A DNA stretch of 47,495 nt, taken from positions 152,041 to 199,535 of the forward strand of contig NW_025765324.1 in the NCBI RefSeq assembly GCF_003918875.1. The letters run 5' to 3'. Shown here one piece after another: positions 18,074-42,885 of the stretch (the first letter of the stretch is position 1; every line of letters begins with the position of its first letter). The DNA is from Haliotis rubra (taxonomy: Eukaryota). The notes under the pieces were generated by a model that saw only the letters and a program-made list of their open reading frames with translations, was not told the DNA's origin and did no database searches. The translations under genes were made by a program, and so were the position numbers.

Positions 18074-18145
18074 TGTATTTGAAGCTTTTGGTCGTATTCA
18101 ATCATGTAAACTAGCCCTAGATGGATCCAAACCAGGAAAACACAA
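18074..18145 (+). CDS. PUF60: PUF60 exon 7 (SVFEAFGRIQSCKLALDGSKPGKHK)
   Basis: This matches human [24 protein letters not shown]. The acceptor is GTTCCAG and the donor is CAA|GTGAGT. Confidence 0.85.
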
Positions 18146-18393
18146 GTGAGTATCAAATTTTTATTCTGGGAGGCGAAATATTTTGTTGCGAGGAGAACAT
18201 ATACACACTTTTTATGACACTACTCTAATAGTTTTGTTTTTTGGAAGGCAGCATTTCTTGGTATGCAGAAATGGTTTGTTAAAGTATTGAAACAGTCAAA
18301 AAAAATTAGATCACATGGAAATCTTGAATGATATGCTTGCATACTGCACTATTTTCACAGAAACCTGTATTTATTCAATTCTGTCTTTGTCAG

Positions 18394-18496
18394 AGGTTAC
18401 GGCTTCATCGAGTATGACACCCCCCAAGCAGCTCAAGATGCAGTTTCCTCCATGAATTTATTTGATCTTGGTGGCCAGTTTCTCCGAGTTGGCAGG
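18394..18496 (+). CDS. PUF60: PUF60 exon 8, RNP1 of RRM2 ([34 protein letters not shown])
   Basis: This matches human [34 protein letters not shown]. The acceptor is TTTGTCAG and the donor is CAGG|GTAAGA. Confidence 0.85.
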
Positions 18497-18879: not shown

Positions 18880-19600
18880 TTTTATCCCCCGCAAAGCGTT
18901 TTGCGGGGGGTATTAAAATGGACTCCGTCCGTGCACATTTGTCTTTTCCGGAGCATAACTCTAGAACCGTTCAATGTTTCTTCACCAAACTTGGCACATA
19001 GATAGATCTGGTGGTGAACTGGTGCCTTTTGGTAGTTTTGGAATTCTGAATAAAATATTTTTGGCGTTTCCATGGCAACAAGTTTGACTTAGCCTGAAAT
19101 TGGTGGTAGGACTCTTTTCCGGAGCAGTACTCTGAAACCGTTAAATGTTTCTTCACCAAACTTGGCACAAAGATAGATCTGGTGGTGAACTGGTGCCTTT
19201 TGGTAGTTTTGAAATTCTGAATAAAATATTTTTGGCGTTTCCATGGCAACAAGTTTGACTTAGACTGAAATTGGTGGTTGTGCTCTTTTCCGCAGCAGAA
19301 CTCTAAAACTGCTCACCATTTCTTCACCAAACTTGGCACATAGATAGATCTGGTGGTGTATTTGTGCCTTTTGGTAGTTTTGGAATTCTGAATAAAATAT
19401 TTTTGCCATTTCCATTGCAACAAGTTTGACTTAGCCTGAAATTGGTGATAGTGCTGCTTTCTGGAGCAGAACTTTAGAAACCTTTCAATACTCTCCTTCC
19501 ACCTTTCTATATACACACCTAAATATTTGACATAATCATAACTCGTAGACATAATCATGAAGCGTATTTTGCCATTGCGGGGGATATTGATGACTTTGTC
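18880..19600. mobile_element. Non-autonomous element with a perfect GC-rich hairpin head (TCCCCCCGCAAAGCGTTTTGCGGGGGGTA), three tandem 178-bp units (18935-19470) and a head-like tail (GCGTATTTTGCCATTGCGGGGGATATTGA). It lies in PUF60 intron 9.
   Basis: The palindrome and the repeats are read directly. The unit is ...TTTTCCGGAGCA(t/g)AACTCTAGAACCGTTCAATGTTTCTTCACCAAACTTGGCACATAGATAGATCTGGTGGTGAACTGGTGCCTTTTGGTAGTTTTGGAATTCTGAATAAAATATTTTTGGCGTTTCCATGGCAACAAGTTTGACTTAGCCTGAAATTGGTGGT.... A related 1.3-unit copy lies at 23440-23630. Confidence 0.8.
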
Positions 19601-20857: not shown

Positions 20858-21054
20858 CTACAGCAGCATCTGTTGCGTCAGCATTGTCAGCAATGGCACC
20901 GGATGGGAAGGATACAAAGAATGGGAAGAAGGATGGAAAGCAGAATAAGTTGGATGATGAATCGAGTCAGAGTCTTGCTCAGCAAGAGAACATGAAGATC
21001 AGTGGCAGTAACGCCAGGCATATGGTCATGCAAAAACTGATGAGGGCACCTCAG
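20858..21054 (+). CDS. PUF60: PUF60 exon 11 (ATAASVASALSAMAPDGKDTKNGKKDGKQNKLDDESSQSLAQQENMKISGSNARHMVMQKLMRAPQ)
   Basis: MKISGSNARHMVMQKLMR matches human MSISGSSARHMVMQKLLR. The acceptor is TTTTCCAG and the donor is TCAG|GTACGC. Confidence 0.85.
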
Positions 21055-21292: not shown

Positions 21293-21414
21293 GTTTATCT
21301 TTGACCCATGGAGTTAGCAGTATTTTGTACTGTTGCATTAATAAAAGGTTCAAGGCTTATGTTGAACGAGTACAAGTTGTACTGATGGTGTTACTAATAA
21401 TTATGTATTTGCAG

Positions 21415-21604
21415 GCACGTGTGATGGTGCTTAGGAACATGGTTGGCCCTGAAGACCTTGATGACGAGCTGGAGACTGAAGTGACGGAGGAGTGTGGCAA
21501 GTTTGGGGTTGTTAACCGAGTTATCATCTATCAGGAGAAACAGAGTGAAGAGGAGGATGCTGAGATTGTTGTCAAGATATTTGTGGAATTCACTGCTCAG
21601 GATG
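21415..21604 (+). CDS. PUF60: PUF60 exon 12, UHM domain part 1 ([64 protein letters not shown])
   Basis: This is nearly identical to human [59 protein letters not shown]. The acceptor is TTTGCAG and the donor is GATG|GTAAGA. Confidence 0.9.
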
Positions 21605-22112
21605 GTAAGATTTTCAATGAAGTGTAAAAAGAATTCAGATTATTTGGAATGTCATAAAACAGAAACATTGAAAAAGAAAAATAGACACTTTTTTTAAATG
21701 AAATAACTGCTGGCCCCTTAAGGATCTATCGATTTTTCCATCCAGTGCGGTTACATGCACTACAGATTTCATTTACGCTGTTGGAACCCCATGGAGTAAA
21801 TGTAGTAGACTATTGAGGGTCAACCCTCCACTTCTGTGAGAAATTTTTATGAATTAGGGTTTTAATGAAATAAATCTGATTCATTGTAAAACATTTGTAA
21901 CTGAACTGAATTGTCACAGACAAATGTTGCCAAATTTGAAATGCATAAATTTCCTATACATTTATCTGTAAACCCATGTGCACCAACTTTTTACAGAACT
22001 ATTACCAATGGAATTTAGAAAAATGGTAGCTATGCAAATTATGGAAAGTCACCAGTACATGTATTTATGAGCCTTAGATGATAATCAGCCACTGAAATAT
22101 TGTTTGTTTCAG

Positions 22113-22222
22113 GTCTAGAACGGGCCATTCAGTCCCTAAATGGACGATTCTTTGGCGGGAGAATTGTGAGAGCCGAGAAGTATGATCCTGACATGTTTGA
22201 AGCACAAGATCTGTCTGGTTGA
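22113..22222 (+). CDS. PUF60: PUF60 terminal coding exon, UHM domain part 2 (LERAIQSLNGRFFGGRIVRAEKYDPDMFEAQDLSG, then stop)
   Basis: This matches human [34 protein letters not shown]. The acceptor is TTTCAG|GT and the stop codon TGA is at 22220-22222. Confidence 0.85.
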
Positions 22223-23833: not shown

Positions 23834-24540
23834 TTAAGCGTCATCTGTTCTTGAACCATAAGATGGGGTCCATCGTCTGCCACATTTGCTGGCTCTCATC
23901 CATCTACCTATGGCCCCTCCAGGCTTATAGTCAGCAAGCTTTGTTTTGCACTGAGCAACTGTCATGAGAGTGGAGAGTGTTCTTGGCTGCAGCCTAGATC
24001 TCCAGTCCGTTTTGACTCTCCCCATCATTGAAAACCATCTCTCACATTCTGCAGATGACACTGCCATCACAAGAGATATTTGAACCAAGGCAAGTATGTT
24101 TTGGTACCTCTTGTAAACTATGTCTTGTTTCATCATCCTTGACCATAGGTCAATGTAAGTCAGATTCTGATTTCTCTTCTGGGTGCCGTTCCACTAACCG
24201 ATCTTACCTAAGATCAATCTTAGCAAGTTACGCCAATTTTACAATAGTCTTAGCTAAAAGTTACACCCTTTCCACTACCCGATCTTAGGCCGATCTTACG
24301 ATCCGATCCAAGCTTAGCTCGAGACTCTTTCGTATGCGAGAGATAGAGGAATGCGAGGCACGAGTCATCTCCCTTTGCATAGTCTAGCAAATGATCAATC
24401 GTAACTACTGGGGTCATTCCGGCAAGCCGGATGGCGTCTCGTACCCCTCTCCACTCTCCTACCCAGAGTTCCATGCGGCAAGCCAGCATAGTACCTCTGC
24501 CACAGGCCACAAAAATGTGACGATTCGTCACATCTTGCAA
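23834..24540 (-). pseudogene. hAT-superfamily transposase remnant, including the C-terminal dimerisation domain
   Basis: ORF 23834..24136 contains ...AVSSAECERWFSMMGRVKTDWRSRLQPRTLSTLMTV, the hallmark hAT C-terminal motif (S-A-x-CER-x-FS ... R-x-RL ... L-x-x-LM). Only fragmentary ORFs lie upstream (24250..24540), and no intact N-terminus was found. Confidence 0.55.
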
Positions 24541-25214: not shown

Positions 25215-25835
25215 TTGAGGCAGTTCATACGGATAGAAATCAATGACACGGACATTCAATTACTTTACATTTGCCGTTCGTGCCACAATAAGGTCGAAAG
25301 CTTTGCTGTCTTCCAAGCGACTGCAATAAGCAATGCCAAATCGGGACTAGAGCAACTACAACGGCCCAAAAGACTAATTGGAACACCGAAGGTAAGCACA
25401 CCTAAAAGGTTAAGCGTTGCGAGTCAACTGATTTCTTCTGTAGAGAAACTAAGAATTAGTGATGAGTCCACATCCCTGTCAGACAAATCAGACCAAAAGG
25501 AATCCAGAAGAACATTGTTTTCGGAGGATACAACATCTTCTGCTGACAAGAGAAATGATTCGTCACAGAGTGTTGACATATCTAAGCACGATCATCTCTA
25601 CGCAGCAACAACACAGCCACAACATGACCCTATGAAATTTGAACATGTGTATGCAAAGTGTACTGTCCAATCTGCTTCAGAACAAACTGACAGACAAAAC
25701 AAGTTGTCTGCAGAAAGACTTATTGAGACCAAACCAGATACAGGTGGATGGGCCTCACACATTGAACATATGTGTCAAGCACTGACTCAGATGTGTGCAC
25801 CAGGAAAGAGCGTTCTCTATTCAAAGTCCCCTTAG
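25215..25835 (+). CDS. Uncharacterised 206-aa ORF with an N-terminal Cys/His cluster (LYICRSCHNKVESF) and a serine-rich low-complexity body. It may be related to a transposon or to a ZAD/THAP-like finger.
   Basis: This is the longest plus-strand ORF in the area. No domain could be confidently recognised by eye. Confidence 0.2.
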   Translation: MRQFIRIEINDTDIQLLYICRSCHNKVESFAVFQATAISNAKSGLEQLQRPKRLIGTPKVSTPKRLSVASQLISSVEKLRISDESTSLSDKSDQKESRRTLFSEDTTSSADKRNDSSQSVDISKHDHLYAATTQPQHDPMKFEHVYAKCTVQSASEQTDRQNKLSAERLIETKPDTGGWASHIEHMCQALTQMCAPGKSVLYSKSP

Positions 25836-26491
25836 TATTTGTCTACCTGTGATGTATTTTCGGGAGGCAGTGTGTGAACTGCAGAGGGTGTCCCCTTTTC
25901 TCTTTTCCATTCTGCATTCTGCACTAGGTGACAAGATAACTATGTCCTCTAAGATTTCTACCATTGCTACCATCTATGGTATGATACTCCACTCAAACAA
26001 CAATAGAGTGTCAGCTGTTCAGAGACTATTTACGACCACAGCCATCAGATATCATGCAGATAACATGGTACCTTTATTTAAATAACGTTTTGAGTTTTGT
26101 TTTATTTACAAGCTCTTTTGAAGCATGTTAAAGGAGCTTCTTTTCTTTATCTTTTGAAACAAAAAACTTGAAATTGATGTTAGTATGTTGTTATTTTAAA
26201 AATATATATATATATTTAAAATCCTAACGTATTACTATTAATCTTTAGCATTCATTCAACTTAAATTTGTTTTAATTTCTTGAAATTTATATGATGTTTC
26301 CCACTGATTTAACTTCCTAATCTATGTACAATAAACACCTTTAAGTTTGAACATTAAAGAATATTATGAAATGGTAATATGACATTGATAATAATACCAT
26401 GGAATATATGAACCATCAACATATAGATTTAAATAATGGTTTTGTTCCACTTTCATTTGAATGCTGTTCCAAGTTCCATGGGGGGGGGGCG

Positions 26492-26659: not shown

Positions 26660-26833
26660 AGTTCCATGCATGCATGCCTGCATGCTGTTCATTGTTATTT
26701 ATGGTGGGGTTGTTTTTCATGAAAACAAAACAATGATTTCCTTCACTTTGGAAATCTCTGCTGACAAAACATCTTTGGTATGGACTTGCATGATGTACTG
26801 AATAAATTTACCACATAAGCTAGATATACTTTC

Positions 26834-27033
26834 AGTAGTATATACAATGGGGCTTCTGGATCACTTTCAACCAAAGCCTCTGCAAAGCCTTATTTCACAA
26901 GTAAGGCTTTGGTCGGACCCTTAGCTCTTGCTACCATTACCCCTACTATGAAAAAGTTTGGGACGATAGCGGGATGCGAACGCACCTCCTAGCCGCACCG
27001 GGGACATGGCTGGAGTGTGTTGGTATCCTGGGG
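26834..27033. repeat. Left TIR of the Polinton/Maverick element
   Basis: It is reverse-complementary to 41306-41510. The first roughly 95 bp are nearly identical. One internal patch has diverged (GCGAACGCACCTCCTAGCCGCAC against its counterpart). Confidence 0.9.
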
Positions 27034-27038
27034 CACCG

Positions 27039-28060
27039 CTATGCCGTGTTGACTGGAGGTAACACGGTGCCGTACAGTACGATCAATAATTCCGCTCTTA
27101 CAAACCCCCTACCTGGCCCATCCCTCAAGTAGTACAAGTTAGGCTCGTCTGCTTTGATGTCCACTTTATCTATGTTGTAAGTTTTGACTGACCATATAGG
27201 ATCGGTGGCTCGCTTACGGCTATCACCCTCGTGTTCCCCCGGCTGGTATAGATACCTCACTAGGGCCCTATCTGGTATCTGTTTCTCTTTTCCACGCAAT
27301 GGAGCAGCCGACTCTGCAACTATTGATTTTAGTTTGATAGCGTCTGCCGGTTTCTTATCAGTGAGCCGGGTGGTTTTATGGTTGATTGCCGACACCACCT
27401 TAGGGAGCCGTGAAACCCATTCAGTCGATCGTTTTCCCGGGGTTGCCATCTCCCTCGCATACTGATGGCCGAATAAGCGCTCAGCCAAAGTCCTATTAAA
27501 TCTCTCAACTATGGCTTGGCTGCGATGGGCTCCAGCCGTTACGCTAACGCCTGACCTTTGTATCGTGTTTGGCTAGCAGTTGTGACACGCCACCCATGAA
27601 CTCCGCCGGGGTCAACTTGCAGCTCTGTTGGCCATGTCAGCGGACTGCGTTTGTATATGCGTTCGAATCCTCTGGCTACCTGGGCAGAATCTTTCGCGGT
27701 CAAGGGTTCGGCTTCCTTGTAGCGACTGGCCACGTCCACTACGGTTAAGGCATACTTGTACCTCTTGTCGTGGGGTAGGAACAGTAGGTCTGCCTGGTGA
27801 ACGCTATTGGGCATGTTAATACCGAACCTCCTCCTAGGCACGTAGCGTGGTGCGGGTAAATAGATCTGCCGCAGGGCTTGTTTTTCAAGCCACGCTTTGG
27901 CCTCCTCCGGGGGTACTCGCGCCATTTTAGCCAGCTTATCTACAGCGCTAGCTCCTTTCCAGTACCCATGCGGGCTGTAGTAAATAGCCTCAAACTTTTT
28001 CTGGTTCCGTTCTTGGTTCAATTTTTTCATGCCCGTACGCGTACGTGTTGATCCCATCAA
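27039..28060 (-). pseudogene. Retroviral-type (rve) DDE integrase of the Polinton, split by a frameshift between two ORFs (28060..27539 and 27488..27039)
   Basis: ORF 1 reads ...HQADLLFLPHDKRYKYALTVVDVASRYKEAEPL...ELQVDPGGVHGW, giving the D, D(PG) core. ORF 2 begins AERLFGHQYAREMATPGKRSTEWVSRLPKVVSAIN, the E region in the form xERxnxtL. The two ORFs are in different frames, 50 nt apart. Confidence 0.8.
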
Positions 28061-28446
28061 TAGCTATCCAACGTTTAGTGTCCATAGGCTTACAGGGACG
28101 TCTTGTTTATTGTCAGTCCGTATATCCTATGGCCATCACTTCTAAGTGTGTTCATTTTATGCCTAAATGTATCGGTCTTGAACAGGGCTTCCTTTGAATC
28201 TGGCGTGTTTGATGTGTTGTTTAACCACGCACTTCTTAACACCCTTAACTTTCCGGATCTCACCATTGTCGGCCTTCAGTATGGAATACATCTTAGGCCT
28301 CAAACCTATGTACTTGCCACGGGCGCAAGCCAGCACACTCGTCCTTCATCTTACCCAGGACCTTTTATTTACCGTACTGTGTATGGCATGGGCCTTGGGG
28401 TAGTCGCTAGTGTCATACAAATCGAGGTGTTTTTCATGTCCTCGCA

Positions 28447-31228
28447 TTAACGCCCCTCGGTTCGAATCTCCATCAGCAGGGAATCCGTGTCAGTGTACAG
28501 CACTTCACACCTGTCATTGTACTGTTTCTTAAGCTCGTTGTAGTAAAAGTCGTACATCAGGTGTTTGGATAAATCGAGGATGCTCATCCCACGTAAACAG
28601 GCGGTTGAATTTTATGTGGCTTTTCTTCATGTGTAGGGCAACTAGGTCATCGGTGAATATCTTGCTACGGTTGAATGCCGGACTGGCTATCAGTCTCCTG
28701 AGCTTGTCTTCCTCATTCGACCGAACCAGCTTCACGGTCACACATTTCCTAAGGTTCTCCATAGTCTTACCAAACACCGAGTTGTTCATGAGCTTGTAGA
28801 GGTTTTTCTCAAAGTCACTGGTGGCAAGCTTTCGGAGGTCTGTGTTCATTCAGATGTAGGGCTCCATCCAGGGGCTCTGGTTGAACACGAGCACCCTATG
28901 TATTTTGGTCAGCCTCATACCCAACGACAGGTACAGCTGTAGGTTGCGATAGTGAACGATGTACTTGGTCTTATTCATTAAGTTGGGCACGAGTTTTTCA
29001 ACTTCTGCCACCCGCCCACCTAATAAGTTATGTTGGTACTCAGACATCCAGTCTGGGTTAACCCTCATACGTTCGGGGGCCAGGGGGTAGCTGTTGTGTG
29101 ATGTGTGTAATGCCTTGGGGTATTCCAAGTCAACTTCGAGGATATAACCTTTATTCGAATCTGGTGCGATGCTCATAACATCGACCTCCTGTGGCACCCA
29201 TTCGAATCCCCCTGTGGGTAGATACTGGCTCATAGCCCAGCCGTTACAGGTTGTTGGCGTCGAGGTAGAGAATGTGATTGGTTGGCTTGCTAGGGTCGTG
29301 AACCCTTCCGTGTATTGATTATTTGCTTTCGCGTATCGCTTGGTTGCCATGGAGATCCCTACCGCAAGCCTTTTCTCAATGAATAGGTGCATGTCATAAT
29401 CTGTAAGCAATTCCAACTTAACTCCAGTCTTTTTCAACAAGGCATCCCACGACAGACCTGGGCTGGTGTAATACCATCGCGGGTCGAAGTTTATACTGCT
29501 TGAAACATGTCCGCCTAAACGTCTCAAACACGCCGGCTAACAGCAGTACATCTGTCCTCAAGTACAGGTCGTGATAGTCACCCAGATTCTCACAACCCAG
29601 TTTATTCCATCGTGCTAATCGTCGCAGTAATCGCCTTGGGATATTGCCGAAGTCAGTCAGATTGCTGTAAAAATTCTCTGATGGGGTAGTCTGGTCTCGG
29701 CGAACTTGGCCCAACTATCCATGTACTCATAAGGGTACACACCCTTCCTCATAAGCAGGGGTCTAGTCTCGCATCTGTGTATCGATCGGTAATAGGGAAG
29801 GTATCATTGGCCTTGACCAGACTGTCGAAAGTGACGACAATAAAAATTGTACTGAATCTATGAACCTAAGGCCGTTTAAGCTGAAGGAGATGTATCTCTC
29901 CATGTTGTTGGGGATGCGTTATATTACCATCGATTTTCGCGATGGCCTGCATGATCAAATGAGAGTCGTACCCTCTCAAGTTGTGAAAGACAACGGAATG
30001 TTTATTGTCTTAGGGTTGATTCTAAGCTTAAGGTTACACATAGGCTGTGAGCTGCGCCTCTATACTTACGGGTTACGTGACAGTGATCTCTCACGAATCA
30101 CCGTTCAGTGGTGAGTCACACACGTGACAGTTAGTGCTACAGGCGTGAGCTAGCCTGTCGGCTCGGGTCATCACGCATGGGGAGACTCTTATACAGTGCA
30201 TTCCTAATAATTTTTCTTCCTCCTGCAAACACTTTAGAAACCTTTCAGGGCTATACACTGAGCTTTCAGGCATCAGGCATTTGGCATATAAGGCACAGGC
30301 ATTTGGTTCTTGTGGTTAGGCCTCAAAGGTTTTTTAGGATATTGTCACCTTCTTTTAGGCATGTCACCTTCGACTGTGATAGCCGTCTGCCCCACACCTT
30401 GGCAATCCTCCCGTGGGATTCTAATAAATCAGCTCGTGTGAAGCCATGTAGGCACCGCTCACAGAAGTGGGTCTTTTCTCTGTGTGCCCGATTGGTCATA
30501 CAACAGCCTGCTAAAGTGTTTTATCCATGTGTAGTGGTACTTGTCACCTCGCTGGATCATGAATATATTGATAATCGAAGGGGGTTCCCTCCCCAACACT
30601 GAGCTTACTCTGTGCACTATTGTTGTGTTACCTTCGTGCCCAAAGACATTTATAGCTAGATTATTCTGTTTTTCTATTTTAGTTATCTGGGATATGGGGG
30701 TTGGTTCATCTATACCATCCCAGTTGAGCCCATCGCCTTGGGGATAACTAGAAGGCCTGTTCGAATTAGTGTCAGCTGGAAACAAGGCTGACCTGATAGC
30801 TAACCTCAAGCAATCGTCTCCTCTATTCCTGACGTTGACCATGGCATGTTTTTTCCTATAGTAGGGGGGCAAGTCTAGGTATGACCCGCCTCTGAACGGC
30901 AATAGTTAGCTATGTCTAGATAGACATTATCGATTTTATCTACAGTCCACCCAGACCCCAAGTGTGTGTAGCGTTCTAGGTATTCTCGTATCTGCTGAAA
31001 ACTGGTATCGATTGATGCGTCAATGGTCTCTATATGGGTCACGACTTCTTGTTTACCTCTGAAGTAAGGCTGAACGTACTCAGTGACCCCATTCCCTGCC
31101 TGCTTATCGAGCGACATTTTCACTGTGATTTGAAATTTGATACTTCCTAGACTGTTTAGTTCCTGGTTTATTTTATCAACTATCAGAGGCTTCATATCTA
31201 TAATATCTATGTTCCTATCAACATGCAT
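28447..31228 (-). pseudogene. Protein-primed family-B DNA polymerase (pPolB) with an N-terminal OTU-like cysteine protease domain. It is disrupted by at least three frameshifts and an in-frame TGA.
   Basis: The OTU Cys box NRGDDCLRLAIRSAL and His box DKYHYTWIKHF lie in ORF 30459..30902. The Exo III motif YLRTDVLLLAGVFETF lies in 29418..29714. A motif A-like LEVDLEYP...HNSYPLAPE lies in 28850..29527. An in-frame TGA at 28850-28852 is followed by motif B KLMNNSVFGKTMEN in 28529..28849. Motif C is found only in the +1 frame after that ORF's stop (…SKHLMYDFYYNELKKQYNDRCEVLYTDTDSLLMEIRTEGR*, ending 28447). Confidence 0.85.
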
Positions 31229-31261
31229 GCGCCAGCCTCTTAAATAATTACCTACAGCAGC

Positions 31262-31600
31262 TCAGTGCGCATCTAACTGTAGGTCAATAGCTCTATTCTG
31301 CCGTAATAGTTCTACAAGCTGTGGTTTCCTCATACGGGAATATCCCCCTAACCCCAAATCACGTGCCTGAACTTTCAGTTGTTTTACAGTGGGAGGTTTT
31401 GCTACGGGGGCATGTGATAACAATGCGATTAACCCGCTCTCCCCAGGTTTGAATAACCCGTGAATCCAAGCTGTTTTGCTTGAGCTTTTAATTGTTTTAC
31501 CGTGAGGAGGGCTTCTAAACCTAGTAATTTCAACAATGCTGGTTTGGGCATTCGAGAATACCCAATTACACCCTCTGCCTGGCGACCCGCTTAAGTTCAC
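31262..31600 (-). CDS. ORF with two tandem Rho_N/SAP-like helix-extended-helix motifs (KTIKSSSKTAWIHGLFKPGESGLIALL and TVKQLKVQARDLGLGGYSRMRKPQLVELL). It is in frame with the pPolB N-terminal region and separated from it only by a TGA at 31262-31264.
   Basis: The motif pattern LK.LA..LG..G.S.MRK.ELIE.L is characteristic of the Rho N-terminal/SAP DNA-binding fold. The frame relationship to ORF 30875..31228 was computed from the coordinates (372 nt apart). Confidence 0.45.
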   Translation of the reverse strand: MNLSGSPGRGCNWVFSNAQTSIVEITRFRSPPHGKTIKSSSKTAWIHGLFKPGESGLIALLSHAPVAKPPTVKQLKVQARDLGLGGYSRMRKPQLVELLRQNRAIDLQLDAH

Positions 31601-32141
31601 TAACAGTAGTCATAGTTGCGCATTACACACCTATGAAGATCAATGTCTAATTGGGCGCCGTAAAGGTAAAAATCTAGATACACCTTATCGATTATTCCCT
31701 CGCCCACCCCGAACATGCGCAGTATAGTAGGGTGTTTTGTATTACTTGCAACGAGTCAGTCAACAAGTATATCTATATCCCCATGCACATCTACTGCGCC
31801 CCCATCAAAGTAATTCCAAGTGTGCCCAGCCCATGGCACATCAAACCCTACTTTTACCATGATTGTAAACGAGAGCACCCCTTATATAGTTCACTAACAA
31901 TCATGGGTTTGAGGACACTGATATCTATACTTTTCCCCACATCCATCTGCCAGCATCTCAGGCAACCTTCCCTGGGCTCAATTTTCATCAAACATAGCTA
32001 TATCGTAGGTGTGTATAATCTCTAACTGGGCCACTGTCAAAGGGAGGTAACTCCTCCAGCCTTACACTGCTATCTTGAGAAGTCGCCACGCTCATTTATG
32101 TAGGCCTTTTATTCTCGTAGATGAGGTGATGTCTGACTACG

Positions 32142-32435
32142 TTAAGCCCCGTGAGCTTTACATAGACAGTAGTGCCCTTTAACCCCTATACCACACACAG
32201 AACACGCCGTAGTTAGGGCTTCCCATGTGGAACCAACAGTACCCCTAGTCCTGCATTTCCTACCACAGGCTTCTTTCTTCCCCATAAGTATGTATTCGCA
32301 TCGGTATGGAGCAGGTCTCATGTTTAGCATACTTATATGAGTACTTAGTCTAATTGTTTCGCTAACCAACGCAGTCGCTGCTATACCCAGCGCTATGAAT
32401 ACCAGTTCACGGTCCATTTGCCCCTTGGATGGCAT
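32142..32435 (-). CDS. Polinton-internal small ORF of 97 aa, with a hydrophobic N-terminal segment and a Cys-rich C-terminus (CGRKCRTRG...CSVCGIGVKGHYCLCKAHG)
   Basis: ORF track only. The Cys-rich tail is a zinc-ribbon-like spacing. No homolog was recognised. Confidence 0.3.
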   Translation of the reverse strand: MPSKGQMDRELVFIALGIAATALVSETIRLSTHISMLNMRPAPYRCEYILMGKKEACGRKCRTRGTVGSTWEALTTACSVCGIGVKGHYCLCKAHGA

Positions 32436-33036
32436 GGTAGTACTGAGCGAGTGTGGGTTTATTGAGCGGTTGCAGCCTTTTACCTGTTAATAAGAAGTAT
32501 TCTCTCGCTGCCTGCGCCGACATGCGTGGAATGTTTGAACGGCATGGTTTTCACGCCTGAGTTGTTCGTTAATGTAATCGATCCTCTGGAGGCGTTTTTA
32601 GCGATACTTTCGGATTGTGCGGCCTGTAATTTCTCAATAGCGAGATTATGCGCTTTCTTTCTTCCTGTATTTCAGCCGCGTGTGACTCTCGTAGTTTCGG
32701 GAGAAGAGGAAATTACTCCGGAAAATGCTAGGGCATTTACTAACGCCCCACCAACCATCATGGCAATCGTAGCCATCCTATATTTACTTCATAATATTTT
32801 CAGGTAGTATCCCTTGTTTTACTAGGATGTCTTTTGTAGCCATCGCCATACCAAGGTTCATTATAAGCATACCCATATCCTGCAGGTTGAAATCTAGCTT
32901 GATAGTTGGTTGTTTAAGCACCATTTTGGTCAACCGAGCGTATCCTACAGCTAGACTGGCGACCACTGTGGCGTGGTATGCGTCGTTGACGAACGTTTTC
33001 CCCTCAGACATTATGTATATGATATAAAATATTAAA

Positions 33037-33886
33037 TTATAACATGATATGTGGGTTGACCTCTAATTGTGGGGGCTCCCCGGAATCCCTGTGAGGGGTT
33101 CCCTCCCCGGAATCCTTGGGATTCCTGTGTCGTGTATATAACCACGAGATAACCACGGCAGCAGTTACGCCTACAGCCAACAAGAGTCGGGTCGGGTGAG
33201 TCACCCTGATAATTTTATGTTGGTTACACCACCGTTTTTTACCGGCAGCTACTCTCTTAGGATTCTTCTGCCTGGTTACTGTAGGGGTCACCTCGGGAGG
33301 GGTCACCTCCAGTTGGGGTTCCCCCAACTTTGGGGTCTCCCCCAGTTGTGGGATCCCCTCTGAAGGGGTCTGGGGTGGGGTCTCCTCCTTGGGGGTTTCC
33401 CCCATCTCCTCCTGTGCAGCATCCATCTATACTATTATTATTATTTTTCCTCTCAAATTGACAATGCTTTGCCGTGATAATCGCCGCCATCACCGGGGCT
33501 AACAACATACCATATTTGTGGTACAGCTCGCAGCTAATAGAGCTCAAGGCGTGTTCGATAAAAGGGTCTTTCTCGAGGTCTTCCCACAGGTAAAGCCGGC
33601 GTTCCTGGGGGATGGGAAGGAAGTATGACGCAATACCAGTGTATATCTGGGTCATAGCCGATCCTATTGTCTTTGTCATCTCTGCTCTGAGCCGGGACTC
33701 GTATCTAGCGTATAGCTTATCAATTTCTTCGGCTGACATTTTGTGAATTTTATCTGGAGTGTACTCCCCAAAGTAATGTTTGGCTTTGCCGCCAACAGCC
33801 AACGCCACCAGTTTCTCTCGCTTATCATCGTCCACCTGTGGTGATTGGGGTACCAACAATTGTTCGAGCAGTTCATCACACTCCAT
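33037..33886 (-). CDS. Polinton-internal gene of unknown function. An N-terminal part starting MECDELLEQLLVPQ... (from 33886) overlaps, in a different frame, a C-terminal part with Pro/Thr/Glu-rich repeats and a transmembrane (TM) helix (LLLAVGVTAAVVISWLY, 33037..33426). This is probably one gene with a frameshift inside an internal repeat.
   Basis: ORFs 33257..33994 and 33037..33426 overlap across a repetitive GGGGTCACCTC / GGGGTCTCC region at 33260-33420. The ATG at 33886 follows a leader that is probably spurious. Confidence 0.35.
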
Positions 33887-34182
33887 CTTATAATGTAACA
33901 AGTAAGATTTAGTTTTAACTATATAATATACGATATAGGCGAAACACAGAGAAATGAAGGTTAAGTTGCACACGACAAACACTTCAAATACCATAGCTAT
34001 AACTAAATGCTAAGTATTTATACTAAGCATTGCTAAGCATTGCTTAGCATTTGCTAAGCATTTGCTAAGCATTTACTAAGCTTTGCTAAGCATTTGGTAA
34101 GCTTTGCTAAGCATTGCTAAGCTAAAACACCCTATAGGCTACTGGTTGGTCGGTCTTGAGCACGAGCTTAGCGTGTTTAGTT

Positions 34183-34737
34183 TCAGCGAGCTGTTTCTTC
34201 ACCCGTTTCCCGTTCTAATTTGCTCATCACATCGTTCTCTCTCAAACACTCTTCGAACGAATCCCTGTCCTTGCAGTGAAATAAGGCCACCCATCGCGTC
34301 TGCTCCCTGAGGTCTTTCAACACCGAGTTGAACTTCTGCGTTAGCACCCAGACGCTGTGATTTGCATGCCGGCCGGAGAAGGCCAGGTACGATAGCATGT
34401 CTCTTTTTGTTATCTCACGCATTAGCTGCAGTCATCCAGTATGAACAACGCCGACTCCTTTAAATTTCATATGGTAAGCTTTCAACCAGTCCTGCAGACG
34501 TGGTCCCGGTCGACTCTGTGTACGTCCGGTCCGGCATCACCCAAGGTCTTTCCGTAATGCTTTATTCATGCTCAGAGTAGGGCACATGATAACGATGTGG
34601 TCGAACACATCCCTGTAGTACCCTCCAACATATCCAACACGAAAACGGTCTTCCCACAGCCAGTCTGCCCACACACTATGGCGCAGTGTGGGTCGCTGGA
34701 GTAAATCAGTAGATGGCTTTGCACGTAATCTCCCATT
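34183..34737 (-). pseudogene. A32/FtsK-HerA-like DNA-packaging ATPase of the Polinton, frameshifted after the Walker A motif
   Basis: The reverse complement of 34737..34624 translates to MGDYVQSHLLIYSSDPHCAIVCGQTGCGKTVFVLDMLEG, containing Walker A. The frame then shifts to YYRDVFDHIVIMCPTLSMNKALRKDLG*. The C-terminal ORF 34183..34422 (...RHANHSVWVLTQKFNSVLKDLREQTRWVALFHCKDR...) is typical of the family. Confidence 0.75.
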
Positions 34738-37700
34738 GTCTATATTAAGTTGCGTCCATAATAACGCATAGATATAATTTCAACTTGCCAGCGGGTTGAG
34801 CCTTCTTGGTAATCTGATGGTTATCCCTCGCTGCCGTTATCTGGCGCGGGCGACCGCTACCATGCAGTTTATCGTCATCCGTGGATCGCATGTCCAACCA
34901 TAGGGCCGCAATTTGGTGGTCAGGTATTCACCGATCTTCACGGAGGATAGGTCCAGGTCTTGGTTATGTGGTGTTGTTTGGCTGGTAGCTTATTTATCTC
35001 ATCCCACTGCTGGTATGCCCTCATACCATGACTGAACAGCTGGTTGGGCACGCTCTATGGTCACTTCCACCTTTTCAATCGGGTTGAAAAACTTCGCTGT
35101 CCCTCCGAACGGCTCGTAATCCTCCACTGGGCATCTACCAGGATGCCTTTCATCGATCGGCTTGGCACGCTCAGGTTGATATTCCACACAGTGTCGCTTT
35201 ATCTCGCATCGACTGATCTATGCCTCAGTATGCGATCGTACAGGATGGCCATCTTCCCAGAGTACTGGCTTCAACCTGCCTGGCCAGCTCCGGCTAGTGA
35301 CCATGTCAAACTCCAGAGAGATGTTATCTATGGCGTAACTGGCCTCATCGCCGCTTGGCGACGCACTACTTTGCTGTAGTCGTTAAACGTTAGTCAGATT
35401 CAAGCTTCTATCACCCAGCTGCCTGGTAAACGGCGCTGCGTCTCGCGGAGCAACTCAAGTCGAGCGGCACGCAGAACCGTTCCCTATACGCTTTGGGCGA
35501 TGGCCTTTTCACCGCTTCCATAGCTTGTCTAGCTGGTCTTGGCGCCGGTTATACCCAATGCTAAACCGGTCGATTTGTTGATACCCTGGTACACGCCATT
35601 GACACGTTCTCCTCGCTTCCAGAGATCCCCGTAGCAGTGAAAACACGCCGCTGTCGCCGATGCTCAGCACCTCGCTACCGCTGATCTTGATGGTGGTTTT
35701 TTGATGATGGCTCGACTCTACGCTCCGCACTAGCTTCACGCTTGTCGCTGGTGGAGGCCAACGCGAGGTTGAACGCCAGTCTAACCGCGGCCTGGTACAA
35801 TGAGGTCATTCTCGCCAAGTTTGGAAATCTAACCAGCAGCGCTTTGGTTCTGGTCTATCTTGCTGGGATTGTTGGTAATGGTCACCGACTGGCGATCGCT
35901 CTGACGCCTAGAGGCTCTCTCGACCTTCTGAAAGGATCTAGTTTTCTACCGCATATTGTTATATAAATGAAATATATAAGTTTTAATACTAAATAATGGC
36001 AGAGTACATACCTATGGATGATATGTGGGATGATAGTGCCCAGGCATTCGAGGATGACACCACATTCACTACCCCCTTAAGTACTGAACTTGTACAGCCT
36101 GCTGTCAACGCATTAATACAACGAAAGTTGAAAATAGAGACTACATCAAGCCGCTGGGGAGGGACTATGCCAAGTTTACCGCCGATAAGAAGGGCACGCT
36201 AGCGATTGAAGGCTCACCCAGGGGTCGATATCATAAAAAAAGATGGGAAGCCATATGCTTTGTCAACACTTACCAGTCGCCCTGGTGGGGGTCAGCTGAT
36301 CCGCGGATGAACTAGGCTTCATAGATTACGGGCGCGACGGTCAAAGCTTCCCCGAAGGTCGCCCAAGATCTGCAAGCAGCCAGACCCAAAGGCGATGAAG
36401 GTGATATACCCCAACGCAAGCAAAGAAACGCCGGACAGTATCGAGAAAATATTGACCACGCGTATCATGACAAACCCTTGCCGGTCTCAAATTTCCAGGC
36501 CTAGACGAAGCCTTTGAAACATGTACGCCGGAGAACTCGTGGAACAACATGGGGAAACTTAATGAAATCGATGAGCACATCGCTTCATGGTGAAAATAAA
36601 ACTCACCGGGCGATGGTGATATGAAACGTCGTGATCGAGGAGAGAATAAAAACTTGAAGACGAGAGACGGACTCGGGTTGGAATCCGCTTCCTCTAACCG
36701 ATCACAGCCCGATCACAGATCAGTAGAGTACCGGAAACCATCGATCGAGTCCTAAATGAAGACACCACGCTTAGCTGACAGGATTCGATCCTGTTCCGAG
36801 CAAGGCATCACCATCGCCAGCATTCTGACTGCATTGGGCTTCATCATATCAACCCTGGTGGTGTCATTGACAGGGGTAGCCCCACTTCGCACTCAACACC
36901 AACACCCACAGGTGGGGTCAAAGAGTGGGATAAAACACCTGAAATCCCTAGGGGAAGCCCTGGCTAAACTGGCTGGTAAGGCTGTCAAGCCCTACCCGGC
37001 ATCCTGGGTAGCATCGTCTCGCGGCTGCTGGGCGCTCTGGCTAAAACTGCCCGCCTGGCTAAAACCTGCCAGCCATTGTCGGCTCAGTCAAAACTGGTGT
37101 AATGGGCTAAGAAATAAGTCCCAAAGCTACCCCACCAACCACCAGGGCTGTTTTACGGTCGATGTGCTGCTGATTGACGCTGCAGGCTGGGGCTGTGGGT
37201 GTGTTGGTTGCACCCTAGGCTCCAGGGTGGCGCCACTATACCCGCTACACGGGTCGCGGGTGGTGGTGGGACGGGGACGCTGACATCGAGGTTGACGCCC
37301 AACTTTTGGTCCGCTGTGGCTACAACTATTTCGTTGTTGTAGCCCACCACTTTTTACTCTCAATTGCATATCACTCGGAGCCATGTACAACCCCACGCCA
37401 ACACGAAGTCTAACTTTCGACCTGGCATATTCCAACACGCCTTGGTAACGCTTTGATGGCACTCGGGAGATCAACTGGAGCATTGATAGCATCCCCTCTA
37501 CGCTGATAACTAACTGTTTCTGAGCCGCCGTAGCAGTCCCCTTTACCGATAATACTGGAACGCTGCTTATGCCTGGGCGCGCACCCAACAGCCTTCACAC
37601 GCACGCTCGAATCGAAGTCGCTCAACCTGATTACACCGCACGAAAGTAAACCCTTTTCGACGTGTCCAGCATGAACTTTTCCAGTCATCCGCTGCCCCTG

Positions 37701-40700
37701 CTCGAACCTCCAGACTCGTAATCCTTACTGTTGTCGAAAAGCCATGTAACGGTCATCCCACTCGCTCGTTGTGAGGTGATGATATCGATTTGTATCCCCA
37801 TTCTTCAACTTTCGCTGGCATCCACGAGGTGCATGTTGTGAACGATGGGGATACCCAACCCGCGGTTCGGTCCCCGCAAACGCCAATCCGCTCTCGCGGT
37901 TTAGTTCGAATTCGCTGTAAATACGTCGTAGGGCCCGCTTATCGTGACTTGTTGTTTACTGCGCTCCATGCGCTGTCCTGTGGGACCGGAGCTGATTTCT
38001 TTAAGGATACGCCTGACCTGGTAGTACACGTGGAACAGGAACACAGACTGACTCAGCGTCCACGAAAGTGTCGGTTAATGTCACACCACACCCCGCTGTA
38101 GCGCACTACACGGGCGAAGTTGAGTTGATTCTGCCAGAACTGCATCGGGTTGTTGAACCAAGCATGAACTACCTTAGCGCTAGTCACCGAAAAATTTATA
38201 CAAGCTGAACACATCTAAAAGCTGGGCGCTGAAATACATCCCATCAGCTCGCACCACGATCTTCATGTGGGGAAATCTATATCCAGTTTAGGGTAAAACA
38301 CTCCAGGGGAGTACATTTTAAAACTATTATATAATGAGCATATATACTCTAACATGTACATAACACTTCCAGGAATAACGAGCGGCGAGGCCGCTCAGCT
38401 GACGACGCGATCGATAATACGCCGGGTCAACTCGAAGTCGCGACTCTGGGCGATATCACCTACCTACCGCGAATGGACTAACATCAACGCCAGCAACAAT
38501 AAGCTGTTCGTCAGTGGAGCTCGCAGCCAGATAACTGACGGCTACTACAGCGCAGCTCGCGTTTTATGGACGCAGGTCTTCAAACCCCTGGGAGCCTAAC
38601 TCAAGATGAACGACTCTAAACGGCACAGTGGTGTTAATCAACAACGGAAGAAACTCCTTGAGGCTCGGCCGCCATTGGCTTTAGGACACTCGGTATGTCA
38701 CCTGACGAGATAAAACCAACAACAACCGCCACAGGCACGGTTACCCGACCTAGTACTGCATCGGAGAGCTGTACATTCATCTCAGCCAAGTGAGCACAAC
38801 GCATAACATTCAAGGGGTCACCCTTCCACTATACTGAGAGCCGCACCGTGAAAACAGAGAAATACAACGACGGTAGAACTGAGTCGCTTTCACCGCTGCA
38901 GTATAAGAGGTTGACTCAGGGCAACATACCTGAGCTGATAATATCGGTGTTAGATATAAATCATAATCCCGGCCAATATAGGATACCTCAGCTTAACGCT
39001 TCACATAAAATGACCAGCGCATAAGGGCCCGGGTGAAAAATGCGCCAATGTGGGGATCTCCGACCTCGGGACACACGCGGATTCGACGCCCCGAGTAGAT
39101 GGTAAATTGTACGCCTTTACAACTGAAAAACAACATTTACAAACGCTGTTGAAGTCCCCTCCGTGGAGCCCTAGGTGATATAGTAGATACCACAAGAGCC
39201 GTAGTCAACACTAAGTACACCCTAGTCACCACCGGGATGATAAATGGATAATATACCCATCGCTCGGGTGGCAAACTGTTCGACTTAGACGATGTTGAGA
39301 GCACTACCGTCGCCCCAAACAAGCCATATACTGCCTTCTTCACCGAAGATGACAAGTGGGTGTTGTTACCAGATAAAGACGACTGGTTTCTCAATATTAG
39401 GCTCGCTCCCCTACGTGTTCACGGATAACAAAGACAACCACCTAAACAAAGTCGCTAACAACGGAACCCTGCTCGCGGGCTTTACGCCCCGACTCAGAGA
39501 CGAAGCGAGCCATCAGCCCAGTCGCCAGTATGGCAGCCCACATGCTATCGAAAGTAAACCGGAATACAAAACGCGACATTGCAGTTGGTGTCTGAATTTG
39601 AAGGCGTGGTCAGGATACTGGAGAGTCTACCGCTTAACTCAACACTGATCATCAAAGTCTACCTAGGGGAACCATCGGGAATGATGTCGAGATCGTGAAG
39701 GGGGTCAAACTCGGGTGGGTGAAACGACACCAGTATCACGCTTGCACAGTTTACGCATGGATGGGTGTCGGCTCCAACACCAGTCTGCAGGGTGTCACCG
39801 TGGATCGTGGAAAACACGATATCACTAACCAAGATCTTCCTACCTGACAACATACACTTCATGGGGTGAAGTTCACCCCTGAACTATTATCAGAAAACCA
39901 GTTGAAACTATATCGTAGTAGTATTATAGCAATGACCAGTCATCGCCCAACACTACGCTTTAATGACCTAGGGGACACGGAGGATTCGATCAGCCTGGTG
40001 AGGAAGACACCTTATACATCCTGCACTTGAAAGACAACGGTATATAGCGGGTGTCGTTATCAGATTTTAAAGAGCCTGAATGGTTAATCAACATGACCCT
40101 CACCACACCTTATATCTCCTTTAAAGGAAATGATATCAAGATCTCCCAGATTAAGAACAACGCATAATTATAGGATCGCTCATTCCGAATCTAGTGTAGA
40201 TATCAACTTAATATCAGTTGACCACACAGGTAACATGTTAACTTCCAGGGGAAGGTGAAGATAGAGATCAAATTACACGATTTACCAAGAGCATCTTCTA
40301 CCTCTCGTCGGGAGACTACACATTCATCATAGACGCCTATCTCGAGATAACCCGTCAGCCTGGGGCGTATATTTACATTATGGACGATATGATCATAAAT
40401 TGGGAAGCCAGGTGTAATAACAAACGCTGTCAGTATTACTAAGGTATCGGAAACAGACCTTTAGCAAGCCCTGATGGGGTTCGCCTCCTTAATGGAAGTA
40501 GAGCTAAGACCCCGCTTTTACGCGGCACGCTTAATCTAAGTATTATCAGCTTTAAGTACATTAACGAAGGTTAAATGAAACCCAATTAAAATATCTTTGT
40601 AATATATATTATAGGATGGGCCTGTACCCAGTCGTAGAGGAAGTAGCGAAAACCCTGGAAACCGTAGATCGGTTCCGCTTTGAGACAGTTATGTGATGTA

Positions 40701-41305
40701 AAAGTCCAACTAGAGCAAGACCGGCTGACACGCCGAAGCACTATGTAAAGTACCATAGAGCTTTCAATATCGTGGATGGGGCTGATACTGCCCTTATGGC
40801 AACCAGCATGGGGCTGGGAGCAGCAGGTGTTGGGTTGTTAGCTACCATCGTGGCTACCCCTCAGAGTGCTAGGCATTGAAATAACAGCTGGGGTGGCAGG
40901 GTGTTAGGGTTGGCGATAAGTTTGCATCACGCAGACTTCATCGTAAGGCATTGAAACCACGATGAGATCAGGGTTCTGGGCAAGCTAAAGCTGAACACAG
41001 TAAGTGAGCGATTTCCACTGCACTCACTGACAGTAAGATCTCAGAGGAGGAATTTCGCTCAATTCTATCTGAACTCACAAAAATATAACAAAATGAAACA
41101 AGAGATTCGCTCAAAGTCTCGTAAGTCTACTATCAGCCAGGACGAGAAAAAAGTACATAGAACAAGGGTGAAAAAAGCCCGGCAAGCCTTTATTACAAAC
41201 ACCAAAGAGATCATAGGCGCATTCACATTAAACTGTTTCATCGAGGTAAACATGGCATAGTGTCATAGCGACACGCTAGACGCAGCCCAGTATTGATGAT
41301 GCAAT

Positions 41306-41510
41306 CCCAGGATACCAACACACTCCAGCCATGTCCCCGGGTAAAGGCTAGGGAGGTGCTGCTAAGATCCCGCTATCGCCCCAAACTTTTTCATAGTAGG
41401 GGTAATGGTAGCAAGAGCTATAGGTCCCACCAAAGCCTTACTTGTGAAATAAGGCTTTTTGCAGAGGCTTTGGTTGAAAGTGATCCAGAACCCCCATTGT
41501 ATATACTACT
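41306..41510. repeat. Right TIR of the Polinton/Maverick element
   Basis: Its reverse complement aligns with 26834-27033. The CTTTC flank lies at 41511-41515. Confidence 0.9.
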
Positions 41511-42453
41511 CTTTCAGACTTTATATAACCTTGATGAAGTTTATTTGATATAAAGTCATCAGGGTTGTTTCTTATGTTTGGTTACACAGTTTACACCACC
41601 ATAGATTTGATATGTTTATAGTATTTGTTACCGCTCATTTGTTTCCTGTTCTTCGCTTAAATTCAAGCATGGCTGACCACTAAACTGAAGATGGTATCCT
41701 GATATATCAAGTAAGGATCTTTTTAAAATGTATCTGACATGTATTGGTAAATAAATTCATAATTATTAAAGCATATTTGTGTACATACATAACTTTATTT
41801 TTCATAATGTAAAAATTGTTTAACCAATATATTTATGTGTTATTTAATAATGTTTCCTTCATCTCTTTGGAAAATGTGTTGTTCAAAACCAAGTTTAGTA
41901 TTAAGCTAAATCTTATGATAAATATTTCAGCTTCTCTCAGTTCTGAACAAGATCCATGTGACATTATCGACAAGACCAAGGACCAGCTGCTGGACAGTTA
42001 TGCAGGCCACTGTGAAGATAACATCATACAGGCAGTTTCTTCAGGTTATCTTGATACTGACAATTAATTTCAGTGTAGGTACTTGTAGAATCAAGCAGTA
42101 AGCCAGTAAATCCTTCCCAAAGGTCTAGATGCCATGGCATAAAGATTTTGTGAAACACATGTTCATGTTCAAATAATCTGTGTAATACAATATGTACATT
42201 GTGAATGTATAAATTTAAGGTGACCAGTTGTGCAACAACCGTTATAAATATCTGTACTGTCATGCTATAGCATATAATAATAATCAGGGATTTGCTTCAA
42301 GAAAAAATTGTGTGTTTAAACTGATCTGTAATTTACTTTGTACAGGTTTGATGGGAAGCTTAAATGGTGACAATCTAGATCTGAGAGTGACAAATCTAAC
42401 GATGTTCTAATGACAAACAACAGTAAAGACTATCATTTCTTTGCTTCCTAATT

Positions 42454-42885
42454 TTGTTGCGGACAGGATTGATACTTCACACGGTGTCAAACAAAGCTCC
42501 TCAGAAAGAAATGGAATCAGTGGGTGCAGATGATTTCCTGCCAACTTGTGAAGAAATTAGAAACTATAAAGAAAATTTAAAGATCTTGCTGGCAAGGAAA
42601 TTGGTAGAGCATGTCAGTTCATTCAGCTGGATGAAAAGCCTCATTCCAACACATGTACCACATGATAGACAAGTCGAGATGTCAAAGGCTTCATCAATTT
42701 TCTTGTTGCCAATTATTTTGAAAAATGAGGCATCATACTCGGACTGTATCGACATAATGGATGCCTTCACGCCAAGCACGCACATCAACCAGTGGTATGC
42801 CAAAGCAGGCAGAGGTAAATGTTTCACGTTTCTTAAAGATTTGGTTAATCATTGCATCTATGCATATATATATATAGAACAATAA
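42454..42885 (+). CDS. Uncharacterised 143-aa ORF (…FLPTCEEIRNYKENLKILLARKLVEHVSSFSWMKSLIPTHVPHDRQVEMSKASSIFLLPIILKNEASYSDCIDIMDAF…)
   Basis: ORF track only. It reads as protein-like, but no domain was recognised and it lies in AT-rich DNA. Confidence 0.2.
   Translation: MLRTGLILHTVSNKAPQKEMESVGADDFLPTCEEIRNYKENLKILLARKLVEHVSSFSWMKSLIPTHVPHDRQVEMSKASSIFLLPIILKNEASYSDCIDIMDAFTPSTHINQWYAKAGRGKCFTFLKDLVNHCIYAYIYIEQ

Follow-up and report, generated by a model that had tools for sequence, protein, structure and literature searches.

Anatomy of a degraded Polinton/Maverick-like element inserted downstream of PUF60 in Haliotis rubra

Element boundaries and composition

The window analysed here is a stretch of 47,495 nucleotides from Haliotis rubra (RefSeq assembly GCF_003918875.1, contig NW_025765324.1, positions 152,041 to 199,535 of the forward strand). 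Downstream of the PUF60 gene, it carries a GC-rich block of 14,677 bp (26834-41510) that combines terminal inverted repeats (TIRs), a short flanking duplication and the genes of a Polinton/Maverick element (Table 1). The left terminus reads AGTAGTATATAC... and the right one ...GTATATACTACT, the outermost bases being AGTAGT and ACTACT, respectively. Comparison of the element with the window by blastn aligns the two arms with 91.2% identity over 205 columns (E 2.5e-75), and a global alignment gives 183 matches out of 199, three indel events and a Kimura two-parameter distance of 0.085, with substitutions among the differences. The repeat finder recovered the left arm in three collinear pieces (26834-26886, 26884-26975 and 26998-27032, against 41306-41510). 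In the pairwise alignment the similarity starts precisely with the outermost AG and CT, the flanks beyond showing none.

Immediately outside the termini, the pentanucleotide CTTTC is present on both sides. The left junction is GATATACTTTC/AGTAGTATATAC (in flank-end form, GATATACTTTC/AGTAGT) and the right junction is GTATATACTACT/CTTTCAGACTTT (in end-flank form, ACTACT/CTTTCAGACT), the slash marking the boundary. The direct repeat is exact over 5 bp, with a chance of approximately 0.0013 at fixed positions, and no 6-bp register matches at the two junctions. A first-pass annotation, made from the sequence alone, had described reverse-complementary termini of about 200 bp, an insertion of 14.7 kb that could be delimited to the base, and a flanking CTTTC repeat of 5 bp instead of a clean 6-bp duplication. 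Our results agree with it on these points: the arms of 199 and 205 bp align with 91-92% identity, the coordinates are exact and CTTTC is found at both junctions.

The element is compositionally foreign to its surroundings by GC content (0.44-0.54 within, about 0.35-0.42 outside) and by the observed/expected CpG ratio (0.8-1.0 within, 0.3-0.6 in the host flanks). Neither TIRs nor duplications indicative of a nested insertion were found at 39.7-40.8 kb or 31.5-32.5 kb, and the Rfam and tRNA scans of the window gave no matches.

Gene content

The open reading frames (ORFs) within the element are short and broken, and only two of them, of 245 and about 75 aa, are still open. Genes were identified through their homologues and mapped by tblastn from L005, an intact relative of 17,223 bp with clean ORFs. 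The assignments rest on homologues because direct Pfam matches were sub-threshold. In this way, the integrase, family-B polymerase (PolB) and A32-like ATPase that the first-pass annotation had placed between the termini were all recovered, though as pseudogenes only.

The integrase fragment matches Pfam rve with an E value of 1.9e-6, below the gathering score, and region 27054-27985(-) aligns with the L005 integrase (tblastn E 1.9e-98), which itself passes rve (E 1.1e-10). A C-terminal chromodomain was not detected: at E<=1, Pfam Chromo matched neither the L005 integrase nor the C-terminal fragment of the window, though the fold may be present in a divergent, chromo-like form. In the case of the ATPase, the fragments match Pox_A32 with E 6.7e-4 and the L005 ATPase with tblastn E 1.9e-43, the latter protein passing Pox_A32 (E 1.5e-11).

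The polymerase belongs to the protein-primed type (pPolB). A fragment of 228 aa (28853-29536(-)) retrieved 7,898 homologues, many of them with PF03175 and the best being 61-65% identical, and region 28008-31294(-) reaches E values down to 1e-126 against PF03175-bearing homologues. The direct Pfam match in the window has an E value of 0.003, below the cutoff, the gene being fragmented. The pseudogene was mapped using two full-length pPolBs, P0310 and P0388; the latter passes PF03175, aligns over 28459-30899 and has its N-terminal domain at residues 268-414. The polymerase motif YTDTDS is read from the translation at 28480-28497. The first-pass annotation had spoken of an OTU-PolB, and this is borne out by the sequence of the window itself: 2,982 representative-cluster relatives of the OTU segment were retrieved at E<=1e-3, Cys32 and His124 are nearly invariant among them, and the model of the segment reaches a predicted local distance difference test score (pLDDT) of 88. 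The Rho_N-like region further upstream would, from its position, be the terminal-protein part of PolB.

Within the same gene, region 30094-30520(-) contains a C2H2-like motif, HFCERCLHGF, and a Cys-rich stretch; it corresponds to a region that in the PolB of the related contig L009 (7882-9825(+)) matches Endonuclease_7, an HNH-type domain, in the N-terminal half of the protein (Pfam E 8.8e-6, above the cutoff). Polinton PolBs with inserted nucleases have been reported for other groups.

The gene for a double jelly-roll major capsid protein (MCP) was absent from the first-pass annotation, as were several conserved genes of the virion module. A stitched capsid-like gene from the related contig L003, used as a query, retrieved 1,282 proteins, many of them intact, of about 430 aa and 70-88% identical; one match, from Elysia marginata, is named 'Major capsid protein' by UniRef, and the named relatives of the gene are molluscan. 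After frame correction, the pseudogene of the window retains 56-59 of 70 invariant MCP residues. In the fold test the highest score was obtained with the faustovirus MCP (20.7), followed by the MCP of PBCV-1 and p72 of ASFV (19.6 each), the MCPs of Sputnik (14.3) and mavirus (13.5), PRD1 P3 (11.1) and the adenovirus hexon (9.2). A candidate capsid region on the + strand, at 38-41 kb, was discarded: its stitched translation of 802 aa matched no protein, and the capsid gene really lies on the - strand at 34.7-36.0 kb.

Among the remaining genes, the 245-aa ORF is a homologue of a conserved 238-aa protein that adjoins the ATPase; its aligned part is free of frameshifts and it has no Pfam match. 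No Pfam match and no PDB sequence match were obtained for the 424-525-aa-type protein. The 211-aa-type gene is a putative penton gene on account of its size and position. The probable remnant of the 254-aa-type gene was recognised by eye, tblastn giving no significant match there. Between this remnant and the last gene, a lower-GC segment of about 660 bp (39940-40604) occupies a place that spans 30-42 bp in L003 and L005; neither TIRs, nor a duplication, nor a protein homologue were found in it.

Table 1. Positions of the element, its genes and the neighbouring PUF60 exons in the window
Feature	Position	Strand	Remarks
PUF60 coding exons	13807-13920, 15757-15981, 17386-17514, 18072-18146, 18392-18496, 20926-21045, 21412-21594, 22094-22219	+	
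Left duplication copy CTTTC	26829-26833	.	Direct reading; exact match to right copy
Left TIR	26834-27032	+	199 bp, starts AGTAGTATATACAATGGGGCTTCTGG
rve (DDE) integrase pseudogene	27054-28063	-	2 frameshifts, 0 stops; 66% identity to intact L005 integrase
pPolB pseudogene	28008-31609	-	At least 21 frameshifts, 3 stops against full-length reference
OTU-fold cysteine-protease domain of PolB	30462-30905	-	148 codons uninterrupted; conserved Cys32 and His124 kept
PolB N-terminal region, helix-extension-helix (Rho_N/SAP-like) DNA-binding motif	31265-31609	-	Pfam Rho_N E 4.8e-6, 26.9 bits, above gathering score
Small Cys-rich ORF upstream of PolB	32142-32435	-	Weak tblastn match (E 1e-4) to ORF upstream of L006 replicase
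Conserved 128-aa protein pseudogene	32364-32740	-	tblastn E 2e-16 to L005 10888-11274; 6 frameshifts, 1 stop
Small hydrophobic protein (about 75-79 aa), conserved	32784-33011	-	ORF intact; tblastn E 1.7e-23 to L003 12718-12990
245-aa ORF, only longer gene still open	33257-33994	-	tblastn E 1.3e-44 to L005 9465-10181
Short tandem repeat	34023-34122	.	10-21 bp unit; between ATPase gene and 245-aa gene
A32/FtsK-HerA-type packaging ATPase pseudogene	34134-34710	-	Walker A GQTGCGKT kept; 7 frameshifts, 0 stops; 68% identity to L005
Double jelly-roll MCP pseudogene	34709-35950	-	18-31 frameshifts, 0-2 stops; 57-63% identity with intact proteins of the family
C-terminal half, homologue of 458-aa coiled-coil and transmembrane protein (virion module)	36474-37061	+	tblastn E 2e-16 to L005 6098-7474; 6 frameshifts, 0 stops
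Conserved 424-525-aa protein pseudogene	37160-38187	-	tblastn E 5e-16 to L005 4835-6109, E 2.7e-19 to L009; 12 frameshifts, 2 stops (424-aa type)
Conserved 211-aa protein pseudogene, putative minor capsid (penton)	38354-39010	+	tblastn E 2e-9 and 2e-8 to L005 4181-4816; 8 frameshifts, 1 stop
Probable remnant of 254-aa gene that follows penton-like gene in relatives	~39250-39940	+	Translations resemble by eye; weak
Conserved 196-aa transmembrane protein pseudogene, last gene before right TIR	40604-41206	+	tblastn E 1.8e-21 to L005 2754-3343, E 6.7e-21 to L006; 7 frameshifts, 0 stops
Right TIR	41306-41510	-	205 bp, ends ...GTATATACTACT
Right duplication copy CTTTC	41511-41515	.	Direct reading

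Related elements

The element is syntenic over almost its whole length with six related elements (L001-L004, L007 and L009), located on contigs that encode some of the homologues of the PolB fragment. The genes of L004 were placed by their own ORF coordinates, the supplied gene table being offset. A terminal consensus, AGTAGTATA-N-GGGGnTTCTGG, is common to the left TIR of the window and to these six relatives. L004 is a complete element of 13,021 bp with TIRs of about 420 bp and, as in the window, termini AGTAGTATA...TATACTACT; its flanks, CCGAGG/AGTAGT...ACTACT/CGAGGT, contain an exact 5-bp duplication, CGAGG, with differing sixth bases. Of L001, L002, L003, L007 and L009 the left end alone was recovered, and L008, whose inverted repeat is without the family termini, gave no duplication data. 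Thus, a 5-bp duplication is found in both complete elements, that of the window and L004.

In two further relatives, L005 and L006, a superfamily 1 (SF1) helicase protein of 1,053-1,238 aa with AAA_30/AAA_19 domains (L005 12625-16341(-), L006 10644-13805(-)) replaces PolB. Both share with the window, in syntenic order, the MCP, the ATPase, three small genes, the integrase, the penton-like gene, the 424- and 458-aa proteins and the terminal membrane protein. Over its first ~90 residues, the L005 helicase protein is similar to the N-terminal end of the PolB ORF in L003. This suggests that the catalytic part was swapped in place behind a common N-terminal domain. Replicase exchange of this kind has already been reported as 'HelPol' chimeras (10.1101/2024.03.25.586562).

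The order of genes is a further point of variation. PolB and the integrase of the window point in the same direction, with the integrase adjoining the TIR, whereas in all six PolB-bearing relatives (L001-L004, L008 and L009) PolB adjoins the TIR and is convergent with the integrase; a single inversion is insufficient to interconvert the two arrangements.

L005 is one of several contigs binned as 'Candidatus Thiodiazotropha', and Polinton capsid genes occur on metagenome-assembled contigs with this label (matches P0133, P0135 and P0221). 'Candidatus Thiodiazotropha' are symbionts of lucinid clams, and the contigs almost certainly represent DNA of the host or of a virus that was wrongly binned with bacterial genomes. 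A scan of metagenomes for the TIR tip found nothing.

Comparison with known systems

Polintons, or Mavericks, are self-synthesising transposons reportedly described by Kapitonov and Jurka in 2006 and by Pritham and colleagues in 2007. The Mavericks of vertebrates catalogued by Barreat and Katzourakis measure 12.7-24.6 kb, have TIRs of 46-1,447 bp, most commonly with the end motif 5'-(AGT)2//(ACT)2-3', and duplications of 6 bp, the majority of copies being degraded (PMC8097293); for Polintons overall, the figures given are 13-25 kb for the length, 100-1,500 bp for the TIRs and 5-8 bp for the duplication (10.1101/2023.08.22.554363). The element described here, with 14.7 kb and a TIR of about 200 bp, lies within the vertebrate ranges and shares with those elements the end motif, the degraded state, the pPolB, the rve integrase, the packaging ATPase and the double jelly-roll capsid gene. 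It departs from them in several respects: its duplication, like that of L004, is of 5 bp, its host is an invertebrate and it has no recognisable protease. Furthermore, vertebrate Mavericks group PolB with the ATPase and have a second module for the integrase and capsid genes, whereas in our element a single strand carries the capsid, ATPase, three small genes, PolB and integrase, the last of these adjoining the TIR.

The features that define adintoviruses are an OTU-PolB, a hexon and an rve integrase, and an OTU-PolB of the PF03175 type marks their 'Alpha' class (PMC8502044; 10.1101/2024.03.25.586562); the name of the family Adintoviridae was changed to Eupolintoviridae by the ICTV in 2025 (PMC12451622). 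In common with the adintoviruses of Starrett et al. 2021 (PMC8502044), which are animal-associated and widespread as degraded germline copies, the element has an rve integrase and an FtsK/HerA-type ATPase. By contrast, adintoviruses were collected through a search for Adenain, which is undetectable in the element, and their rve integrase has a C-terminal chromodomain where Pfam detected none in that of the window and L005. With the HelPol-type midsize linear DNA viruses (10.1101/2024.03.25.586562), and with L005 and L006, the element shares the same backbone, its integrase and ATPase being 66% and 68% identical, respectively, but those relatives have a helicase replicase where the element has a genuine pPolB.

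The first-pass annotation had considered the TIRs and the OTU-PolB as features of an individual lineage worth classifying. Every feature it singled out has already been described (PMC8502044; 10.1101/2024.03.25.586562; PMC11071308; PMC8097293; 10.1101/2023.08.22.554363), and the element is an unremarkable representative of a class that is well known.

Identity and decay of the copy: alternative readings

Taken together, our findings indicate, with a probability of roughly 0.9, that the block is one complete integrated Polinton/Maverick, an adintovirus-like member of the Polintoviricetes. The copy is, moreover, very probably a dead genomic fossil shaped by real decay. Scored by frameshift-aware dynamic programming of intact reference proteins against the DNA, nine genes show 87 frameshifts and nine in-frame stops over 8,987 aligned nt. 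We regard the copy as a fossil and not as potentially active because its core genes are broken and its TIR arms are diverged by about 8%.

Several observations speak against this interpretation. The direct Pfam matches of window fragments and stitched translations to rve, DNA_pol_B_2 and Pox_A32 all stay below the gathering scores, the host-genome evidence comes from one copy of the element alone, and a penton profile search of the PDB found nothing. An adenovirus-like maturation protease is a typical Polinton core gene, and no adenain/Ulp1-type protease was found at Pfam E<=0.1 among the stitched translations of the window and the annotated proteins of the intact relatives L005 and L009, nor by Pfam among the L003 proteins; a divergent protease among the conserved 424-, 254- and 238-aa proteins is possible. 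In addition, the damage is dominated by small indels and associated with CpG, unlike simple neutral decay.

The failure to detect a protease, together with the helicase replicase that takes the place of PolB in relatives sharing the capsid and integrase genes, would fit an element of another class with a similar gene set, namely an endogenous virophage, a protist polinton-like virus or an endogenous element resembling adenoviruses and lacking integrase-mediated ends. Virophages and protist polinton-like viruses depend on giant viruses for replication or have protist hosts. To our knowledge, they usually lack the pair of pPolB and rve integrase, mavirus excepted, and this holds generally for the protist polinton-like viruses. 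However, the combination of an rve integrase, a PF03175 OTU-pPolB, AGT/ACT TIRs and a short duplication in an animal genome is what defines a Polinton/Maverick or adintovirus (PMC8097293, PMC8502044), and a scan of the IMG/VR viral contigs with the PolB fragment and the MCP alignment recovered no relatives, so that we consider another class highly improbable.

The nature of the damage opens another alternative, in which the copy would be intact or nearly so in the animal, and might be active, most of the ~87 frameshifts being assembly consensus errors in a CpG-rich, probably methylated and possibly multicopy repeat. In this regard, frameshifts far outnumber stops, the opposite of what is seen in L003 and L004, whose MCP pseudogenes have 1 frameshift and 1-4 stops, and 46 of the 87 frameshift sites (53%) are no more than 2 nt away from a CpG, where the background is 29% (p 3e-6). 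The element is not CpG-depleted though the host flanks are, and the frameshift density is uneven: the integrase has 2.1 per kb, PolB has 6.4, and there are 12-16 in the region from 32.3 to 41.2 kb, which includes the capsid module. The survival of most invariant MCP residues after frame correction points in the same direction. Against this, not one frameshift is found in the eight aligned exon segments of PUF60 in this window (1,077 nt, 27 CpG), where 10.4 would be expected by length and 5.0 by CpG (P = 3e-5 and 0.007, respectively), which rules out assembly-wide noise. Two host tandem arrays likewise have 0% indels between copies. Furthermore, the ~8% difference between the TIR arms includes many substitutions and is far above any consensus error rate, and some in-frame stops persist after frame correction. 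Consensus error is consequently a very unlikely origin of the bulk of the frameshifts, and we favour genuine decay, the predominance of small indels and their clustering around CpG being an oddity of this copy.

The abundance of 1-2-nt indels also bears on the target-site duplication, whose 5 bp could be a decay artefact of a canonical 6-bp duplication (CTTTCA or ACTTTC) that lost a single base at one junction. Duplications of 6 bp are the rule in vertebrate Mavericks with (AGT)2//(ACT)2 ends (PMC8097293), and with a right flank of CTTTCA and a left junction of CTTTC/AGTAGT deleting a single A of an AA run would suffice. Nevertheless, in L004, the sole other complete relative recovered, the 5-bp duplication is likewise exact and the sixth bases differ, the few relevant junction bases would be hit with a chance of a few percent at about 1% indels per site, and the literature permits duplications of 5-8 bp (10.1101/2023.08.22.554363), a range that includes the value found here. 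A lost sixth base is thus unlikely, and the 5-bp duplication is probably a trait of the lineage, since both complete elements have it. In this sense, the two elements provide a small data point on the stagger of the integrase, combining a 5-bp duplication with classic AGT/ACT Maverick ends.

It is conceivable, though in our view rather doubtful, that the element represents an uncatalogued Polinton lineage of marine invertebrates, probably of molluscan type, characterised by an integrase-made 5-bp duplication, the lack of adenain, a highly conserved MCP of ~430 aa nearer to giant-virus capsid folds than to hexon, the 'HelPol' exchange of pPolB and SF1 helicase on a module for morphogenesis and integration, and, in this copy, a tandem order of PolB and integrase absent from the six relatives.

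Proposed history and significance

By analogy with the class, the retrovirus-type DDE integrase of a linear double-stranded DNA genome with TIRs would have placed this genome in an intergenic, transposon-rich target, and staggered cleavage followed by repair would have duplicated the 5-bp target CTTTC. Removal of the element and one CTTTC predicts the pre-insertion site ...GATATACTTTCAGACTTT... / ...AGATATACTTTCAGACTTTATATAACC... In its active form, the element would have been replicated by its own protein-primed family-B polymerase with the TIRs as origins, the N-terminal part of PolB acting as terminal protein. The OTU-fold protease domain may have freed the latter, a role proposed for the pPolB OTU domain after structural analysis (PMC11071308). 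Finally, the A32-type ATPase would package the DNA into an icosahedral capsid built of the double jelly-roll MCP.

The locus offers a cleanly delimited endogenous Polinton, suitable for base-exact masking or annotation and for rough dating by the divergence of its TIRs, and the related loci illustrate a theme already described, the exchange of replicases as modules while the capsid and integrase backbone is conserved. As a dead copy, it adds nothing new on activity or virion formation, and its significance beyond genome annotation is small.

Host locus

The element lies ~4.6 kb past the PUF60 stop codon, the last coding exon ending at 22219. The exons were located with a human PUF60 sequence as query, which the alignments themselves validate: the UHM exon is 80-82% identical to human and the last exon about 50%, values indicative of an animal outside the vertebrates. 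The first-pass annotation had the insertion separating PUF60 from an AT-rich downstream region. PUF60 is indeed found upstream, but the supposed AT-rich region is plain host background composition.

The insertion point is not within an ORF. Upstream of it, a zinc-finger-like ORF of 206-260 aa is found at 25215-26085 (+), and downstream, an N-terminal fragment of DUF6589 at 42454-42885 (+) (E 4.5e-6). The ORFs on either side may be remnants of another mobile element or gene, forming one unit that received the Polinton. A remnant of the C-terminal dimerisation domain of a hAT-family transposase is present at 23834-24136 (-) (Pfam E 1.3e-7, above the cutoff). The PUF60 introns contain tandem arrays of about three copies each, with units of 155 bp (14400-14919) and 171 bp (18942-19489), and a 30-bp minisatellite of 15.6 copies at 4490-4957 yields an artificial ORF of HHPVGDHNIL repeats.

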